A stretch of 64,000 nt of DNA from Candidatus Tanganyikabacteria bacterium (GTDB lineage: Bacteria; Cyanobacteriota; Sericytochromatia; S15B-MN24; VGJW01), in contig VGJW01000010.1 in NCBI GenBank assembly GCA_016867265.1, positions 35,525-99,524 of the forward strand. Reading direction: 5' to 3'. Of the stretch, positions 5,420 through 24,741 are shown piece after piece; position 1 is the stretch's first letter; each line of letters opens with the position of its first letter. The translations under genes and the position numbers were made by a program. The notes below the pieces were generated by a model. It was not told the DNA's origin. It made no database searches and worked only from the letters and a program-made list of their open reading frames with translations.

Positions 5420-6408
5420 CGGGTCTGGGGCACCGTGGGGTTGGCGAGTTTGATGTCCGTGCGGAACAGGTGAATGGTCAGCAGCACCATCCACAGGGGG
5501 CTGATGTCCTCGGGCAGGTCGATATCGGCCTCGATGGGTGCTCCGGCGACTTTGTGTATGCGCCGCACCTTGCCCACCACGGGGTCCAGACTGGGAGGGT
5601 TGCGTATTTCCATCGTGATTTCGTCGCCGATGCCCAGTCCATCGTGGACCCCGACCAGCCGAAGGCCGAGAGCCGACAAGTGACCGAGTGTGGCCAGCCG
5701 GTAGAACTGGCCGGGTACCCTGTAGCGCAGCGGCAGGTCCGAGGCGCGCCGGAAGCGCTGCTGGCGCTGGCTTCTGTGGGGGGGGCTAAGCAGGCGCACG
5801 GAGAGCAACTCGGGGTCTTCGCCCTCGGGCAACAGCACGATGCGCCGCCTTGTCGCCATGCCGTCGCGGTCCTCGTACTGCAGTTCGCCCTCCGTACCGG
5901 AGCCGTGGGCCAAGCCTGCCTGCTCGCCCCATGCGGGACGCTGGATGAACAGGACCTCATCGGCCTGACCGCGCGAGACCGTGTTGTAGGTGCGACTCTG
6001 GTCGTCCAGTTGCAGCGTCATGGGCGTGTCGAGCGGATGATGGTCCCCGGCAACCCGATTCAGCCGCTGCAGCAAGGTCTTGCCGTCCAGCGGCTTGGGC
6101 AGTAACTCGGAGGCACCGGACTCGATCGTGGCCTGCAGGACCTCGGCCGTGGTCTTCGAGGACATCATCACCACGGGCATCTGGCTGGTGAAGGGGTTGC
6201 AGCGGATGGCCATCGCCAGCAGCGGGCCGGGCAGGCCGCCTAGCTCGTAGTCGATGAGGGCCATCGAGGGCTGCTGCTTGATCGCGGCCGAGATGGCCTC
6301 GACGCCGTCCCCGACGGACACGCAGTCGTAACCCTCACCGGCCAGCATCGCGACGAGATTCCTGCGGTGCTGGGTGGAAGGGTCGGCAAGAAGAAGGAGG
6401 CGTCCCAA
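5416..6408 (-). CDS. response-regulator receiver domain fused to PilZ-like domain
   Basis: N-terminal REC (LLLLADPS...ALIDYEL phospho-Asp...VVMMSS...LPKP); C-terminal RxxxR-containing stretch (QRQQRFRRASD ... HLSALGLRL) consistent with c-di-GMP-binding PilZ. Confidence 0.7.
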   Translation of the reverse strand: MGRLLLLADPSTQHRRNLVAMLAGEGYDCVSVGDGVEAISAAIKQQPSMALIDYELGGLPGPLLAMAIRCNPFTSQMPVVMMSSKTTAEVLQATIESGASELLPKPLDGKTLLQRLNRVAGDHHPLDTPMTLQLDDQSRTYNTVSRGQADEVLFIQRPAWGEQAGLAHGSGTEGELQYEDRDGMATRRRIVLLPEGEDPELLSVRLLSPPHRSQRQQRFRRASDLPLRYRVPGQFYRLATLGHLSALGLRLVGVHDGLGIGDEITMEIRNPPSLDPVVGKVRRIHKVAGAPIEADIDLPEDISPLWMVLLTIHLFRTDIKLANPTVPQTR

Positions 6409-6512
6409 GGCAACCCCATATACCCCGAGGGCCCCGCAAAGCTAACCTCCACGCCTGACAGGGCCTCCGAGGGCGTAGAATGGGACGGTGCCGACGACAC
6501 GAGGAGGTGGCG

Positions 6513-8222
6513 ATGGCGACGCTGGACAAGCTGGACGAGACGGGCCTGGAGCGGTTACTGGCCGGGGAAGAGGGGCATCTCCTGCGCGCGCCGCGCGGTG
6601 CGACGCGGCTCTGCCGGGGCTGGGTCCAGGAGGCGGCCCTGCGGATGCTGCTGAACAACCTTGATCCTGAGGTGGCGGAACATCCGGAGCGTCTGGTGGT
6701 CTATGGCGGCACGGGCAAGGCGGCCCGGGGCTGGCCGGAGTTGCGGGCCATGGTGCGCACCCTGCTGACGCTCGCGGACGACGAGACGATGCTGGTGCAG
6801 TCGGGTCGGCCGGTCGGGGTTTTCCGGACGCATGCCGATGCGCCCCGGGTGCTCATCGCCAACAGCAACCTCGTCGGCAAGTGGGCCCATTGGGCGCATT
6901 TCCGAGACCTCGAGGACCGCGGCCTGATGATGTACGGCCAGATGACGGCCGGAAGCTGGATCTACATCGGGACGCAGGGGATTCTGCAGGGCACGTGGGA
7001 GACCTTTCGGGCGCTGGCCCGCAAGCATTTCGGCGGCACGCTCGCCGGCCGCTGGGTGCTGACGGCCGGCCTTGGCGGTATGGGTGGCGCCCAGCCCCTG
7101 GCCGTCACGATGAATGACGGCGTGGCCCTGGTGGTCGAGGTCGACGAGACGCGCATCCGGCGCCGCCTCGAGACACGCTACGTGATGGAGATGGCGACGG
7201 ACCTCGAGGACGCCGTGCAGCGGGTGCGGGCTGCGGTGGCCGAGCGTCGCCCCTTGTCCGTGGGGCTGCTGGGCAACATCGCCGAGGTCGCCCCCGAGCT
7301 GGTCCGGCGGGGCTGGATCCCCGACGTCGTGACCGACCAGACCTCGGCCCACGACCCGTTCTGCGGTTACTTGCCACCCGGAACCGATCCCCGCTCGGCC
7401 AAGGATCTGGCTGCTACCGACCCCGAGGGCTATGCCCGGCGCGTCGGCGAGGCGGCGGCCACCCACGTGCAGGCCATCCTCGCAATGATGGAGGCGGGGG
7501 CTGTCGCCTTCGACTATGGCAACAACCTGCGCCAGCTGGCCAAGGACCACGGCGTCGCCGACGCCTTCGACTATCCCGGCTTCATTCCCGCCTATATCCG
7601 GCCGCTGTTCTGCGAGGGCAAGGGACCGTTCCGCTGGGCGGCGCTGTCCGGCGACCCGGCCGACATCGCCCGCATCGATCGCTACATCCTCGAAGAGTTC
7701 GGTGCGGACGAAGATCTGGCTCACTGGATCCGCCTTGCCCGGGACCAGGTTGCCTTCCAGGGGTTGCCGGCCCGCATCTGCTGGCTTGGCTACGGGGACC
7801 GCGCCCGACTGGGCCGGGCCATCAATGACCTCGTCGCGCGAGGCGAGGTCTCGGCCCCGGTCGTCATCGGCCGGGACCATCTGGATTGCGGCTCGGTCGC
7901 CTCGCCCAACCGCGAGACCGAGGCGATGCGGGACGGCACGGACGCCGTGGCCGACTGGGTCTACCTGAATGCCCTCGTCAACACCTCGGGCGGTGCCTCG
8001 TGGGTCTCCCTGCATCACGGGGGCGGGGTCGGCATCGGCTATTCGCTGCACGCCGGCATGGTCATCGTCGCCGACGGCACGCCCGAGGCGGACCGCCGCC
8101 TGGAGCGCGTGCTGACCAGCGACCCCGGCATGGGCGTGATCCGTCATGCCGACGCCGGCTACGACGAGGCCGTCGCCTGTGCCGACGAACGGGGTGTCCG
8201 GCTCCCCATGCGGGAAGGCTGA
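6513..8222 (+). CDS. hutU: urocanate hydratase
   Basis: ATG after GAGGAGG; ~570 aa with urocanase hallmarks throughout ([13 protein letters not shown]-binding region); track ORF starts 33 nt earlier at a weaker start. Confidence 0.9.
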
Positions 8223-15515: not shown

Positions 15516-15542
15516 TTGGCACTCGCGATGCCTGAGTGCTAA
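15516..15542. promoter_or_regulatory. CIRCE operator (HrcA binding site) TTGGCACTC-N9-GAGTGCTAA
   Basis: One mismatch to consensus TTAGCACTC-N9-GAGTGCTAA, exactly 9-nt spacer, immediately upstream of hrcA. Confidence 0.75.
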
Positions 15543-19158: not shown

Positions 19159-20280
19159 TTGCCACGCGACTGCTATGAAGTCCTCGGAGTGTCCCGCACG
19201 GCCTCCGAGGACGACATCAAGAAGGCCTACCGCAAGCTGGCCCGCCAGTTCCATCCGGACGTCAACAAGGACCCGGACGCCGGCGAGAAGTTTAAGGAGG
19301 CCACTGAGTCCTACGCCATCCTCTCGGATGCCGAGAAGCGTTCCCGTTACGACCAGTTCGGGCACGCCGGGGTCGAGGGGGCGGCTCGGGGCTTTGATCC
19401 CCATGCCGCGGGCTTCGGTGATCTCTCGGATATCTTCGAGGCGTTCTTCGGCGGCGGGATGCGTCGAGGCGGGCGCCGCGGACCGGAGCGGGGTGCCGAT
19501 GTCCAACTGGGCGTCCGCATCACCTTCGCTGAGGCCTACGCCGGGACCGAGCGGACGCTCGAGGTTGCGGCTATGGCGCGCTGCGATACTTGCCGCGGTT
19601 CCGGTGCCAAGGAAGGCTCGTCGCCCGTGACGTGCGCGACCTGCCACGGCGTCGGGCAGGTTCAGCAGACCCAGCGCACGCCCTTCGGGCATTTCGCGAC
19701 GGTCGTCGGCTGTCCCGCCTGCGAGGGCGAGGGCCGGACCATTGCGGCCAAGTGCGGCTCCTGCAAGGGACAGGGCCGGGTGCGCAAGACCCGCGAGATG
19801 AGCATGCGCATTCCGCCCGGCTCGGACCAGGGCCTTCGCATCCGTTCGACGGGCGACGGGGACGTGGGGCCGCGTGGTGGGCCGCCTGGTGACCTGTTCG
19901 TGCACGTCCAGGTCGAGGGCGACTCTCGCTTTGTTCGTGAAGGTACCGAGCTGTTCCACGAATTGCCGGTGTCCTTTCCCCAGCTGGCGCTCGGCGACGA
20001 GGTGGAGGTGCCCACGATGGAGGGCAGCCACAAGATGGTCATTCCCGAGGGGACGCAGACGGGTACCGAGTTCGTCCTGCGTGGCCAAGGCTTTCCGGCC
20101 TTGCGCGAGGGACGCCGCAAGGGCGATCTGCACGTGATCCTGCGCCTCGTGGTGCCGCGCAAGCTTTCGGAGGCCGAGCGCGAGGCTTTGCGGCAGTTCG
20201 ACGCGGCTCATCGTCAGGAGGCGACCAAGGAGGGCCACGGATTCATGGACTTCCTGCGCGGGGTGCTGGGCGGACGCTGA
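19159..20280 (+). CDS. dnaJ: molecular chaperone DnaJ
   Basis: J-domain [33 protein letters not shown], Gly/Phe region, four CxxCxGxG zinc repeats. Confidence 0.9.
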
Positions 20281-20290
20281 GGCGAAGGCT

Positions 20291-22081
20291 TCAGGTCTGG
20301 CCGGCCGGGTTTGCGGCCAGGCGGCAGCGAGTGATTTCGGCTTCGAGGTCTGCCAGGATCTGTCGCGCGCGTGTGACTTCGGCAGCGCGATCGGAGGCGG
20401 GTTCGACGTGGCGACGCCCGAAGGGGAAGAAGCGCCAACCTGACGGCCGGAGTTCGGGCGTTGCGGCCTCGAGGGTCGCCAGCTCCTGTCGCAGTTCCTC
20501 GGCACGCCGTGCCAGCTGATCCGCACGCGTGGCCATCAGGGTTCGTCTCGCGTCGTCCTCGGCCCGCTGTTCCTGTCGGTGTTGCCACGCCCTCAGGCGC
20601 GCACCGGCCTCGGCGCCAAGCGTCACGCGCCGGTCCTCAGGCAGGAGTTCCCAGAGCCTTCCCAGGCCCTCGCGCAGGGTCTCGCCTTCTGCGTCGTCCG
20701 ACATCACCCGGGCCATGCCTTGCCAGAGGGGCGATGCTTCCGTATCGATGCCGATAGGGCCTTCCGGCAGCCGTTCCAGCAGGGCGGCCCAGTCGGGGCC
20801 GAGCGGCCCCCGGGCTCGCTCGAGCCGGGCCACGGCCCTGGATGCCCGCCCCAGCCGATCGAGGCGCTCCGCGCGTCGCGGGGACTCCTGGCGCAGGGCG
20901 TCCCTCAAGATGCCCGCCACGACCGGCGCCAGCACCAGGTGTCCGTCATCGTCGTGATCGAGTGCTTCGGCGTGTGTCGTCAGCCAGAGGAAGGCCGATT
21001 GCGCCTCGCCGGGATCGGCCAGGACGATCTCGAGGGCATCCTGGCTGATGGGGCCTAGGAAGGCGGCGGCTTCCATCCAGCGGATGCCTTCCTCGGACTT
21101 CCACCAGCGGATGCGGCGGGCGGCGTGCTGCAGCGCAAGCCCGCGCCCCCTGCCGTCCGTGTCGCACCAGAGCGCCAGCAGGAACGGCAGGCCGCCGGTG
21201 GCTTCGAGGGCTTCCCCGGCCCGATTGGGTGCGAGGCCGCGTGCTTCGAGGTAGGCGGCCACGTCCTCGGGGCCGAACCGCGCAAGGTCCACTTCGCGAA
21301 TCTGGTGCATCAGGACGTCCCACCGGCGCAGGGGGTCCGTATCGCGCAGGCGTTGCCGGCCGCACACGAGCATGCGGAGGTCGATGCCCGAGCCCGGGGC
21401 GTCGAGCGTGGGCAGGCCCCAGGCGAGCAGCCAATGGCCCAGCGTGGGATGGAGTGCCTCGTGTGTGTCGAGGACCATCAGGACCCGGGCGGGGGGCTGG
21501 GCGACCGGCGCCTGCAGCAGTCGCTCCCAGCCCTGCTGGGGGCGCAGGCCTTCCTTGAGGTCCTCGCGCAATGCGTGTGCCAAGGCGCGCATCGGCTGCA
21601 GCATGAGGTCCTGTTCTTCGCGGTCCCTTGTCCACGCGTGCACCGCCGCTTCATAGCCCTGCCGCACCCGGGCATCCGGGGTCTGTCCGGTTTCTGCCGT
21701 GGCGTCCAGGGCTTCGTCGAGGCCGGCCAGAAGCCCCTCGGGGGCTCCGCCGTCGACAAGGCGGCCGCGCAACCTGCGCAGCATATGGAGGGCCTGGCGC
21801 AGCCGTGCGAAGCGCAGGGGGGGCAGGTCACGCGGGGCCACGGAGCGGTCCACGAGGCCTTCGAGCGCGTCCAGCAGGCCGACGCGCCCGCCCGTTTCGT
21901 CCAGGGCGAGGCGGGCCGTTTCGGGTGCGGCCTGGTCAAGGCGCTCGAGGACGACTTCCTTGAGCGTCGTCTTGCCGATGCCGCCGGGGCCGTGCAGGTT
22001 CACGAAACGTTTGCCCGGTGGGCCGGAAAGGTCACGGGCGACGGTGGCGAGCACCTGTTCGCGGCCGATGAAAAGGCGCAT
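20291..22081 (-). CDS. NB-ARC/STAND-like P-loop NTPase with C-terminal helical/coiled-coil region, no effector or HTH domain
   Basis: N-terminus MRLFIGREQVLATVARDL...KRFVNLHGPGGIGKTTL (Walker A), RVLMVLDTHE (Walker B); C-terminus Ala/Arg/Glu-rich coiled coil; convergent on dnaJ with 10-bp gap. Confidence 0.6.
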   Translation of the reverse strand: MRLFIGREQVLATVARDLSGPPGKRFVNLHGPGGIGKTTLKEVVLERLDQAAPETARLALDETGGRVGLLDALEGLVDRSVAPRDLPPLRFARLRQALHMLRRLRGRLVDGGAPEGLLAGLDEALDATAETGQTPDARVRQGYEAAVHAWTRDREEQDLMLQPMRALAHALREDLKEGLRPQQGWERLLQAPVAQPPARVLMVLDTHEALHPTLGHWLLAWGLPTLDAPGSGIDLRMLVCGRQRLRDTDPLRRWDVLMHQIREVDLARFGPEDVAAYLEARGLAPNRAGEALEATGGLPFLLALWCDTDGRGRGLALQHAARRIRWWKSEEGIRWMEAAAFLGPISQDALEIVLADPGEAQSAFLWLTTHAEALDHDDDGHLVLAPVVAGILRDALRQESPRRAERLDRLGRASRAVARLERARGPLGPDWAALLERLPEGPIGIDTEASPLWQGMARVMSDDAEGETLREGLGRLWELLPEDRRVTLGAEAGARLRAWQHRQEQRAEDDARRTLMATRADQLARRAEELRQELATLEAATPELRPSGWRFFPFGRRHVEPASDRAAEVTRARQILADLEAEITRCRLAANPAGQT

Positions 22082-22126
22082 GCTGTCGAGGTTAAGGTCG
22101 GTCGTGCATCGGGGTCAAGGTGGTTC

Positions 22127-22735
22127 GTGAAGCGTTTGCGCGTGCCGGCACGTCGCCTTGGCCTGACGGCGATCCTGCTGGCAGGCTGTGCCGGTGCCCC
22201 TGACCGCTATGTGGCCACGCTCGAGGTGGCCATGCTCGGGGCCGAGCCGGGGCGAAGGGTTGCCTTGGCCATCCGGGACGGCGTCTGGCGGGTCGATTTC
22301 CGGGATGCCCAAGGCAGCTTTGCCCTCGGTTGGCGAGGCCGCCCGCGCTGGGTGCTCTTTGCCGGTGGCTTGTCTCGCCAGATGGACCTCGAGCCGGTCG
22401 TGCGCCGCCACGGCTTGCCCGACCCCGGGGATCTGGCGACGGTACCCTTCTCGTCCAGCGCCTGGATGAAGGCCGCCCGGCCCATCGACGTGCCCGGTCG
22501 CATCTCGGGCGTGGCGTGTCGCCTTTGGCAATGCGAGGCCTCAGGGTCCGTGGAGCGGTTCTGGCTGGCCGAGGAGGACGGTGTGCCCCGGCGATTCGAG
22601 CGCGCGGCGCCGGACGGCACCCTGCTGGCGCAGCTTGACTGGCGCGACGTGGCGGTCGGGGGCGATTTGCCCGACGCCAGCTTCTCCGTTCCCGCAGGGA
22701 CCCTGGGCCTGCCTGCGCTGCCTTCCGGCATCTAG
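22127..22735 (+). CDS. lipoprotein (LolA/LolB-like fold suspected)
   Basis: GTG start; lipobox LTAILLAGC; 202 aa; the long 536-aa track ORF is only real in this C-terminal portion (its upstream part is antisense to the NTPase gene). Confidence 0.5.
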   Translation: MKRLRVPARRLGLTAILLAGCAGAPDRYVATLEVAMLGAEPGRRVALAIRDGVWRVDFRDAQGSFALGWRGRPRWVLFAGGLSRQMDLEPVVRRHGLPDPGDLATVPFSSSAWMKAARPIDVPGRISGVACRLWQCEASGSVERFWLAEEDGVPRRFERAAPDGTLLAQLDWRDVAVGGDLPDASFSVPAGTLGLPALPSGI

Positions 22736-22814
22736 CCGGCGGGATGTCCCGGTTGGGAGTTCCTGTTGGCTGTTGCGCGATTATCTAGGTCGCGACAAAA
22801 ATTATTACTGAAGC

Positions 22815-22848
22815 TTGACATTGCGGGCGGAGGGAGGTTGTCTATGGT
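22815..22848 (+). promoter_or_regulatory. candidate promoter for rhodopsin gene (-35 TTGACA at 22815-22820, -10 not cleanly resolved)
   Basis: AT-rich island (22780-22860) in a 70% GC genome, 40-70 nt upstream of the TTG start. Confidence 0.3.
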
Positions 22849-22886
22849 TTGTATACCTCTGACGGCTTCAGATTGGAGAAGCGCCC

Positions 22887-23672
22887 TTGAACGCCTTGCC
22901 CACATTGACAGCGGACCAGTTTTCGCTGGTCTACAACATTCTCAGCTTTACCATCGCGACCATGGGGGCCTCGTTCCTCTTCTTCGTGCTGGGCCGGCAG
23001 CAGGTCGGTATCCGCTACCGCCCGGCCCTGCTGGTCTCGGCGCTCGTCGTGGCGATCGCCTGCTACCACTACTTCCGCATCTTCGACAGCTTCGAAGCGG
23101 CCTATTCGCTTGTCGACGGCGCCTACAAGCCCAGCGGCAAGCCTTTCAATGACGCCTACCGGTATGTCGACTGGCTGTTGACGGTGCCCCTGCTGCTCGT
23201 TGAACTGGTCGCCGTCCTGCAGCTGTCGCGGACCGAGAGCGGCCCGATGCTTCGCAACTTGGCGATTGCGGCCGTCCTGATGATCGGCCTCGGCTACCCC
23301 GGTGAGATCGAGCACAACAACATGATGGTTCGTGGTGTCTGGGGCGCCCTCAGCAGCATCCCGTTTGCCTACATCCTGTATGTCTTGTGGGTCCGGCTCG
23401 GCGAAGCCGTCAAGGATCAGACCGATCGTGTCCGCAACCTGCTCGGCACCACGCGTCTTGTGCTCCTGGCCACCTGGGGCGTCTATCCCATCACCTACTT
23501 GCTGCCCCAGCTGGGCGTCGACACTCAGGCGGCGACGGTCGGCATCCAAGTGGGCTACGCGTTGGCAGACGTCGCAGCGAAGGCGGGCTACGGCCTCCTT
23601 ATCTACGCGATTGCCCGGGCCAAGTCCGAGGCGGACGGCAGCGCGCCCGACTTCCAGCCCGCGGCTGCCTGA
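22887..23672 (+). CDS. type-1 microbial rhodopsin, DTE-motif proton-pump type (proteorhodopsin/xanthorhodopsin/Gloeobacter-rhodopsin-like)
   Basis: TTG start 7 nt after GGAGA; helix C RYVDWLLTVPLLLVE (Asp, Thr +4, Glu +11 = DTE; Leu at the PR-105 tuning position); helix G ALADVAAKAGYGLLIY with Schiff-base Lys; seven predicted TM segments; 261 aa. Confidence 0.85.
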   Translation: MNALPTLTADQFSLVYNILSFTIATMGASFLFFVLGRQQVGIRYRPALLVSALVVAIACYHYFRIFDSFEAAYSLVDGAYKPSGKPFNDAYRYVDWLLTVPLLLVELVAVLQLSRTESGPMLRNLAIAAVLMIGLGYPGEIEHNNMMVRGVWGALSSIPFAYILYVLWVRLGEAVKDQTDRVRNLLGTTRLVLLATWGVYPITYLLPQLGVDTQAATVGIQVGYALADVAAKAGYGLLIYAIARAKSEADGSAPDFQPAAA

Positions 23673-24045: not shown

Positions 24046-24741
24046 ATGCACGATTTGCCCTTGCTCAAGTCGACGTTCCGGAGCTGTGGCCAACGCCTGC
24101 AGCGGACGGAGAGGATTGGCGGGGGCGGTGGCTGGGAAGACCTCTACACCGTCGTGGACTACGCGGCCTTTGCCCTGTCCCGGGAGCTTCCCGAATTGCC
24201 GTGCAGCGCCGGATGCGCAGGCTGTTGCCGCAGCAAGGCCCTGTTTCAGGTGACGCAACGGGAGTGGGAGCTGGTCCGCGAGGCCGTCGATGCGTGGCCT
24301 GAGGCACGCCGGGCCGATCTGGCGTGCCGGGTCGTGGCCGCGCATGGGCCCGATCGCGAAGCGCTCGAAGCCTTGGCGGCGGCCTGGGGGGAAGCGGGTC
24401 TGGGGGCGCGCATTCCGGTACCGGATACCCTGAGGGATGGCTGTCCCCTGCTGGGCGACGATGACATGTGCATGGTCTACGAAGCGCGGCCTCTCGTCTG
24501 CCGGGCTTATGGCGCCTTTTCCGTCACCCTCGACGATCGGCCCAGAGTGATGATCTGCCGGGAGTTCGGCCCGGACTTCCTCCAGGTCCTGCATGACACG
24601 GACATGCCCGAGCTGCCGTTGCCCGTCTACGAGCGTTACGTGAGCCGGCTGGGGGCCTTGCAGCCACCGGGGCCGCTTCGTCCCATGGCCCTGTGGTTGC
24701 TCGAGTGGGCAACGGCCATGCAGGGTGTGCAACCGGCCTGA
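24046..24741 (+). CDS. YkgJ/UPF0153-family Cys-cluster (CxxCxxCC) protein
   Basis: CSAGCAGCC motif plus downstream CPLLGDDDMCMVYEARPLVCRAYG; chosen over the antisense 282-aa ORF on this basis. Confidence 0.55.
   Translation: MHDLPLLKSTFRSCGQRLQRTERIGGGGGWEDLYTVVDYAAFALSRELPELPCSAGCAGCCRSKALFQVTQREWELVREAVDAWPEARRADLACRVVAAHGPDREALEALAAAWGEAGLGARIPVPDTLRDGCPLLGDDDMCMVYEARPLVCRAYGAFSVTLDDRPRVMICREFGPDFLQVLHDTDMPELPLPVYERYVSRLGALQPPGPLRPMALWLLEWATAMQGVQPA

Follow-up and report, generated by a model that had tools for sequence, protein, structure and literature searches.

A STAND-class NTPase gene convergent with dnaJ in Sericytochromatia, encoding a protein with or without a two-helix membrane hairpin

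The stretch of DNA analysed here, referred to as the window, comprises 64,000 nucleotides of contig VGJW01000010.1 from a Candidatus Tanganyikabacteria bacterium (Cyanobacteriota; Sericytochromatia), and contains a gene for a 596-residue NTPase that converges on dnaJ. The NTPase is a member of the STAND class, of the NB-ARC/MalT-like kind. It appears to be a vertically inherited gene at a fixed site, specific to the lineage of Sericytochromatia, which are cyanobacterial relatives that do not photosynthesise, and its clade lacks a two-helix membrane hairpin that deeper orthologues carry. Most likely it is a nucleotide-switched, oligomerising scaffold acting at or near the inner membrane; by analogy with other STAND proteins, we give this explanation, taken as a whole, slightly better than even chances.

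20291 to 22081, minus strand: STAND-class NTPase gene, 596 aa (open reading frame; Pfam matches to AAA_22, AAA_16 and NB-ARC; homologues; dN/dS).

This open reading frame (ORF) is a genuine gene and not a chance ORF in a genome of 70% GC. Long ORFs lie on many frames because the GC content of the window is approximately 63–72%, and GC content at third codon positions (GC3) gave no separation of the NTPase frame from an in-phase antisense ORF; it is therefore homology and dN/dS that show the gene to be real. Its homologues cover a range of 37–98% identity. Comparison with three orthologues (92, 75 and 62% identical) gave dN/dS values of 0.13, 0.17 and 0.22, respectively, which places the frame under purifying selection, and every domain of the protein stays below 0.25, the C-terminal third being the least constrained (up to 0.24). 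The ORF begins MRLFIGRE at the most upstream start codon (ATG, 22079–22081). Its stop codon occupies 20291–20293 and that of dnaJ ends at 20280, leaving a 10-bp gap between convergent stops. An earlier note on this DNA had described a 596-residue ORF whose stop is separated by 10 bp from that of dnaJ and whose start is about 45 bp away from a divergently transcribed lipoprotein, and these coordinates were recovered on re-reading the sequence. By exact look-up, the protein is identical to the NCBI entry MBM3259547.1 ('ATP-binding protein') of a metagenome-assembled genome (MAG) of Ca. Sericytochromatia / Ca. Tanganyikabacteria.

The assignment to STAND, made to the class and not to a named clade, is based on motifs, profiles and predicted fold. 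An AlphaFold2 (AF2) model built on alignment A1 (mean pLDDT 76) has the domain order nucleotide-binding domain (NBD), HD1 and winged-helix domain (WHD), and the elements of this module are as follows.

21272 to 22081, minus strand: NBD, aa 1–270 (AF2 secondary structure).
21965 to 21991, minus strand: Walker A / P-loop GPGGIGKTT, aa 31–39 (alignments).
21458 to 21484, minus strand: Walker B strand VLMVLDTHE, aa 200–208, of the D-x-x-E type (alignments).
21356 to 21376, minus strand: sensor-1 strand RMLVCGR, aa 236–242, followed by the family motif DPLRRWD (alignments).
20882 to 21271, minus strand: HD1, aa 271–340, and WHD, aa 347–399 (AF2 helices and strands, motif columns, structural matches).

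In the model, the NBD strands are at aa 26–31, 56–60, 198–205, 233–242 and 261–265, and a helical insert of approximately 135 aa (aa 61–197) separates Walker A from Walker B. The protein has FIGRE at aa 4–8, an FxGR start that is common to the orthologues and the wider family. Residues G31, G33, G34, G36, K37, T38 and T39 of Walker A are invariant in alignment A1, and the motif is kept across the wider family, for which conservation was read from an alignment of 32 relatives. D205 and E208 of Walker B are invariant among the orthologues, so the absence of a Walker B that the earlier note had allowed for is not seen; in the wider family E208 is found in 32/32 sequences and D205 in 31/32, with Glu in P0026. 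G241 and R242 of sensor-1 are likewise invariant among the orthologues, the pattern 'hhh[SCA]GR' being present in 31 of the 32 aligned family sequences, and the GLPL-type motif of HD1 (GLPFLL, aa 297–302) is invariant. At the MHD-type position of the WHD (aa 384–386; 20924–20932, minus strand) most relatives have His (hHP, hHD or hHE). The clade of the window protein has Ala385 here, with Ser in P0003, and several other family members are also without the His. In Apaf-1 and plant NLRs, the MHD-type His holds the ADP state.

Pfam matches the window protein to AAA_22 at 1.5e-7 (above the cut-off), AAA_16 at 5e-6 and NB-ARC (PF00931) at 1.3e-3, the last covering only the P-loop (aa 8–49) at 18.4 bits against a cut-off of 23.5. 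Two sister proteins are just over the NB-ARC cut-off (23.7 and 26.6 bits), and among family members AAA_16 is matched in 10/10 and NB-ARC in 8/10. An NCBIfam scan of the window protein returned nothing useful, and a profile search of PDB sequences gave P-loop matches only, in RecA, ArsA and one NB-ARC protein. An exhaustive hmmsearch of 1.84 billion representatives with the family profile gave 706 matches. The matches sampled for a Pfam scan included three proteins of 846–1119 aa that are STANDs with AAA_16 and TPR, with E-values of 1e-26 to 1e-14 and alignments over profile positions of approximately 3–530. Bacterial and cyanobacterial STANDs of this type (AAA_16 and TPR, 800–1200 aa) are the closest annotated NOD relatives of the window protein. 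They have in common with its family the motif columns FxGR, GxGGxGK[ST]T, hhhhDxxE, hhhxGR, GLP[FY]LL and hHP, and share with the protein itself the DT[YF]E, GR and GLP motifs and the helical insert, which in cyanobacterial relatives includes the WTRDREEQ motif. However, the TPR-STANDs run on into long TPR arrays, whereas the window protein ends in a coiled coil approximately 200 aa after the winged helix.

Foldseek ranks MalT as the best structural match, followed by plant and animal NLRs, CED-4 and Apaf-1. The window protein has the same NBD, helical and winged-helix module as these AP-ATPase/NB-ARC and MalT STANDs, and shares with them GxGGxGKTT, the hhhhD of Walker B, the sensor-1 Arg and the GLPL-type motif; the His at the MHD position is shared by most members of its family, but not by its own clade. 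It differs from them in having no N-terminal effector or adaptor, no C-terminal repeat sensor and no helix-turn-helix (HTH), and in having the 135-aa insert between Walker A and Walker B and a coiled-coil hairpin as its C-terminus. Fusion to a repeat sensor (TPR, WD40, LRR) and/or an effector or adaptor is usual in STANDs but not obligatory, and the window protein has neither. The earlier note had read the protein as a STAND/NB-ARC-like NTPase, and the motifs, the profile matches to TPR-bearing STANDs and the predicted fold all support this. An ORC/Cdc6 AAA+ identity was also considered and is unlikely, as Foldseek ranks STANDs first and the GLPL, MHD-type and FxGR motifs and the profile relatives are all STAND-type.

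With MalT as the best structural match to the NOD and a winged helix present, the protein could be a transcription regulator of the MalT/AfsR type with an overlooked DNA-binding part. This is very improbable. No match to LuxR/GerE, BTAD or any other HTH was found in the whole protein or the C-terminus at E-values up to 0.5–1, and the C-terminal profile scan thus returned no sign of the MalT/LuxR HTH that the earlier note had suggested might have been missed. Moreover, STAND modules normally have a winged helix as their third domain, and the C-terminus is a coiled coil that is membrane-embedded in relatives.

The part of the protein after the WHD is made up of two elements in the AF2 model, in line with the long helical/coiled-coil C-terminus described from the sequence.

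20639 to 20881, minus strand: small helical domain after the WHD, aa 401–481 (AF2 helices at aa 401–424, 428–436, 451–460 and 464–479).
20312 to 20638, minus strand: antiparallel coiled-coil hairpin, aa 482–590 (long AF2 helices at aa 482–539 and 563–590).

The profile alignments of the TPR-STANDs reach into the small helical domain (to profile position ~530). The tip of the coiled-coil hairpin (aa 540–562; nt 20396–20464) is a disordered, low-confidence loop with an aromatic/basic patch (W549-RFFPFGRR), and judging from its composition this patch might retain an ability to attach to the surface of a membrane. Neither the whole protein nor the isolated C-terminus (aa 401–596) gave a Pfam match to an HTH, TPR, nuclease, protease, TIR or other effector domain, which agrees with the earlier reading, and there is no room for an N-terminal domain because Walker A starts at residue 31.

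A word-indexed search of 5.8 billion proteins returned only nine relatives of the window protein. The deeper orthologues (37–41% identity) are 742–806 aa long and have a low-complexity insert in the NBD. In P0004–P0008, alignment A1 places two hydrophobic transmembrane (TM) helices opposite the gap or loop of the window protein at aa 540–562. This membrane hairpin is missing in the clade of the window protein (P0001–P0003) and, separately, in P0009; the window protein has no TM helices. The wider family occurs in other phyla, with proteins of approximately 735 aa (720–746) of which only two are named to a taxon (Desulfobacterales and Ignavibacteria). These proteins consist, in order, of the NOD, a coiled coil, two TM helices, a second coiled coil and a C-terminal motif. 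The two-TM hairpin is found in 35 of 156 family representatives, approximately 90–200 aa from the end. In the long forms it has basic flanking residues and a short loop, which would fit both of its ends being cytoplasmic. The C-terminal motif, L-x-E-[PSA]-[WYF]-[IV], usually forms the last residues of the protein; it was seen in P0012–P0022 and approximately 20 further representatives, and has been lost in the clade of the window protein.

STAND NTPases as a kind are well known, but this family with its coiled coil-2TM-coiled coil arrangement is uncharacterised. No model in Pfam, NCBIfam or PADLOC covers it. Pfam scans of the C-termini of four long homologues gave coiled-coil and TM noise only, and that of the P0012 C-terminus a single sub-threshold match, to Halogen_Hydrol (XpaC). 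Family members are annotated as 'hypothetical', 'ATP-binding protein' or 'AAA family ATPase', and wrongly as 'thymidylate kinase' or 'TolA-binding protein'. A literature search retrieved nothing on 'nSTAND6', nor does an eLife study of Death-like and TRADD-N domains in bacteria (PMC8195603) describe the architecture of the family.

Since both the deeper orthologues and the wider family carry the membrane hairpin, the soluble, effector-less state is most simply explained as a secondary loss, and the anchor-less form of the window protein's clade would then be the derived one. The description of the protein as a minimal effector-less version therefore stands in so far as no effector was found, but the state is most simply one reached through loss of the hairpin. 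Loss of both the membrane hairpin and the MHD-type His, alongside the weaker constraint on the C-terminal third (dN/dS up to 0.24), could also mean that the protein, formerly anchored in the membrane, is decaying and no longer has a function. We find this hard to credit, as the full-length ORF is kept in four lineages at 62–98% identity with dN/dS of 0.13–0.22, and all catalytic motifs are intact.

Orthologous loci (L001–L012, L020 and L021) were taken from NCBI MAGs, JGI, ENA and Logan assemblies. The orthologues occur almost only in Sericytochromatia-like MAGs, and all recovered ones are at one site. The shared gene order is hrcA-grpE-dnaK-dnaJ, the convergent NTPase gene, the lipoprotein gene (in some), a CxxCxxCC gene (in all), a variable slot and scpB-scpA-smc. 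Two of these neighbours in the window are:

19159 to 20280, plus strand: dnaJ, the last gene of hrcA-grpE-dnaK-dnaJ (Pfam DnaJ, DnaJ_C and DnaJ_CXXCXGXG; synteny).
24046 to 24741, plus strand: CxxCxxCC gene (PF03692, YkgJ-type; Pfam 6.5e-6; synteny).

The CxxCxxCC gene is the sole neighbour on the divergent side that is present in every orthologous locus. dnaJ is present in all loci reaching far enough (L011, L020 and L021 end inside the gene), and where it is adjacent to the NTPase gene the spacing ranges from a 10-bp gap to a 39-bp overlap. In L005, four sugar-nucleotide and Uma2 genes lie between the two, therefore adjacency to dnaJ is not obligatory. A reverse search of metagenomes from the CxxCxxCC gene added L020 and L021, both with the lipoprotein and NTPase genes, and also found L022, from a more distant lineage, where the CxxCxxCC gene lies by scpB-scpA-smc with neither the NTPase gene nor dnaJ within 6 kb of it. 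The pairing of NTPase and CxxCxxCC genes is therefore confined to one lineage. On the other side of the L022 CxxCxxCC gene (5980–6687) are alpha/beta-hydrolase-like and hemC/hemD-like genes, assigned by eye, and no lipoprotein gene.

In the window, the neighbours of the NTPase gene (dnaK/dnaJ, the lipoprotein gene, a rhodopsin gene, the CxxCxxCC gene and scpAB-smc) make up a housekeeping setting. The term orphan, used in the earlier note, does not suit a gene of which every recovered orthologue lies in the same conserved housekeeping neighbourhood. Paired identities for the NTPase and DnaK are 92/98, 75/98, 62/95 and ~40/75–79%; NTPase identity thus falls in the same order as DnaK identity, as would be expected under vertical descent.

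A position beside dnaJ raises the question of whether the NTPase is functionally tied to DnaK/DnaJ, for example as a STAND that monitors DnaJ or is triggered through it. In most orthologous loci the NTPase gene has dnaJ as its direct convergent neighbour, and there is a precedent in bNACHT25, a bacterial NLR-related protein for which DnaJ is needed in phage sensing (PMC12169576). However, the convergent orientation means that the NTPase gene and dnaJ are not co-transcribed, four unrelated genes intervene in L005, members of the sister family are not near dnaJ, and the only CIRCE element in the window is at 15516–15542, with none near the NTPase gene. Gene order conserved within a single lineage accounts fully for the two genes being neighbours, which leaves a chaperone link highly unlikely. 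A more elaborate form of the same idea, again by analogy with bNACHT25, is that Sericytochromatia domesticated a once membrane-inserting STAND, possibly a suicide or defence effector, as a soluble core switch that has lost its hairpin and ADP-locking His and is kept beside dnaK-dnaJ to read out or co-operate with DnaK/DnaJ. We regard this as a long shot.

The main rival to a scaffold role is that the protein belongs to the anti-phage or abortive-infection STANDs (Avs/bNACHT-like), in which case the long forms would kill via clustered membrane hairpins. This is unlikely, though by no means negligible. STAND together with the two-helix membrane module of the long forms resembles known defence architectures, and the topology of the module, with cytoplasmic flanking helices, is comparable to that of the SLATT and 2TM effectors of CBASS, Pycsar and DRT. 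The C-terminus of P0012 has weak matches to the PADLOC model RTasSLATT (2.3e-4), a 2TM effector model (3.4e-3) and Pfam SLATT_5 (0.023). However, a SLATT identity of the module was not reproduced when tried on 26 C-termini: P0012 was the only one with SLATT-like matches, and all other matches were coiled-coil noise from SMC-like models. The window protein itself has no hairpin. For such a short form the defence explanation would require that the built-in effector has been lost and that the protein signals to a partner encoded elsewhere, which is similarly doubtful.

Avs and bacterial NACHT defence proteins are of the same superfamily as the window protein and have the same nucleotide-switch oligomerising logic, but it lacks their effector domain, large sensor (there is none of at least 400 aa), PADLOC match and defence-island context. 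The suggestion of an Avs-type module is not upheld, as there is no N-terminal effector and only 196 aa follow the WHD. PADLOC, a defence-system screen of the kind proposed in the earlier note, gave 0 matches for the window protein and no meaningful match for its orthologues or neighbours, and two isolated weak matches only when run on 10 family members. The slot between the CxxCxxCC gene and scpB does carry toxin-antitoxin and transposase genes in relatives, which would favour defence. Against this, the NTPase gene keeps one conserved housekeeping site across deep divergence, unlike the patchy islands that are typical of defence genes, and three of five sister-family contexts are unremarkable, with ordinary genes. 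In the largest survey of STANDs, 391 of 589 clades were not classed as defence-associated (PMC13581612). A defence role for this orthologue is possible but unsupported.

If the protein is instead an oligomerising scaffold, its switch would be from an ADP-bound monomer to an ATP-bound oligomer, as in other STANDs, with nucleotide exchange opening the interface between NBD and WHD. Oligomerisation would bring the C-terminal hairpins together in a bundle. In the long forms the bundle would lie in the inner membrane and either anchor a signalling platform or perturb the membrane, whereas the short form in the window would be a soluble or peripheral coiled-coil platform, the output of which would require other proteins. 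For sensing, the small helical domain (aa 401–481) together with the coiled coil offers the one candidate surface.

Several points weigh against this scaffold reading. For oligomerisation and output, it extrapolates from other STAND proteins. The loci were gathered by searching with the NTPase itself, and the claim of a fixed core gene covers NTPase-bearing genomes only. The NTPase evolves faster than its neighbours, with dN three- to sevenfold above that of DnaJ/DnaK, which would also suit a conflict gene and so favours the defence alternative. The same holds for two sister proteins, P0013 adjoining brxB, a brxC-like gene and pglX, and P0012 adjoining an antitoxin. Finally, with Ala385 at the MHD-type position the switch may behave atypically, or the ADP lock may be loosened; as hairpin-bearing family members are also without the His, no conclusion is drawn from this residue. 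The locus of P0013 (L018, 5498–14702) has the gene for this 734-aa protein, which has a two-TM hairpin, directly upstream of a BREX-like set made up of a 273-aa gene, brxB, an 1148-aa gene and a pglX-like methyltransferase gene.

The divergent side of the NTPase gene in the window has the following features.

22127 to 22735, plus strand: lipoprotein gene, 202 aa, lipobox LLAGC (Cys21), GTG start at 22127 and AAGGTGG ribosome-binding site.
22082 to 22126, no strand assigned: divergent intergenic region, 45 bp (alignment A5).

The lipoprotein is 100% identical to FJY99_07365 of a Ca. Sericytochromatia / Ca. Tanganyikabacteria MAG. The earlier note had called it LolA-like; a divergent lipoprotein with a lipobox is indeed present, but a LolA-superfamily fold is possible and only weakly supported. 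Its gene lies beside that of the NTPase in L001–L005, L008–L010, L020 and L021, and is absent in L006, L007, L011 and L012. With respect to presence and absence of the lipoprotein and of the TM hairpin, all four combinations are seen. The lipoprotein thus cannot be an obligate partner, and co-occurrence of homologues, which the earlier note had proposed to check, is limited to some lineages and does not track the hairpin.

L008 has an almost identical copy of the 45-bp intergenic region, which is also well preserved in L009 and L010. A scan of 20100–22900 found no sigma-70 consensus promoter and no intrinsic terminator. Read by eye, the NTPase strand of the intergenic region has TTGACC-17 nt-TTAACC, which stops 8 nt short of the ATG, and it lacks a Shine-Dalgarno sequence; because of this the NTPase mRNA could be leaderless or nearly so.

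Between the lipoprotein and CxxCxxCC genes lies a microbial rhodopsin gene (22887–23672, plus strand; PF01036, 1.5e-38), the product of which has a DTE-type motif by eye (RYVDWLLTVPLLLVE) and the helix-G Lys. It is present at this spot only in the window and the two relatives closest to it, L008 (98% identity) and L009 (92%), and is absent there in L001/L010 and all deeper lineages. Such a distribution suggests that the gene was inserted recently, in a single sub-clade of Sericytochromatia. The variable slot between the CxxCxxCC gene and scpB is nearly empty in the window. In relatives it holds a Y1-type transposase, PIN/MazE and HicB-type toxin-antitoxin genes, and sugar-nucleotide genes (L003, 4285–4716; L005, 3078–5202; L006, 1–1198 and 6288–8439; L007, 3487–3915). 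The CIRCE element at 15516–15542 (plus strand) stands at the head of hrcA-grpE-dnaK-dnaJ and is near-perfect, with the sequence TTGGCACTC-N9-GAGTGCTAA, 1 mismatch and a chance expectation of 0; its presumed role is that of HrcA operator for the chaperone operon.

The presence of a STAND NTPase alone is no evidence for phage defence, and here the context is a housekeeping one and descent is apparently vertical. Practical importance is limited, as the host organisms are uncultured. If the explanation favoured here is true, the gene documents an uncharacterised STAND family made up of NOD, coiled coil, two TM helices and coiled coil. The anchored and anchor-less orthologues at one fixed locus would then form a natural pair for probing the role of the C-terminal hairpin, and would also let one ask how a STAND switch works without a classical sensor or effector.

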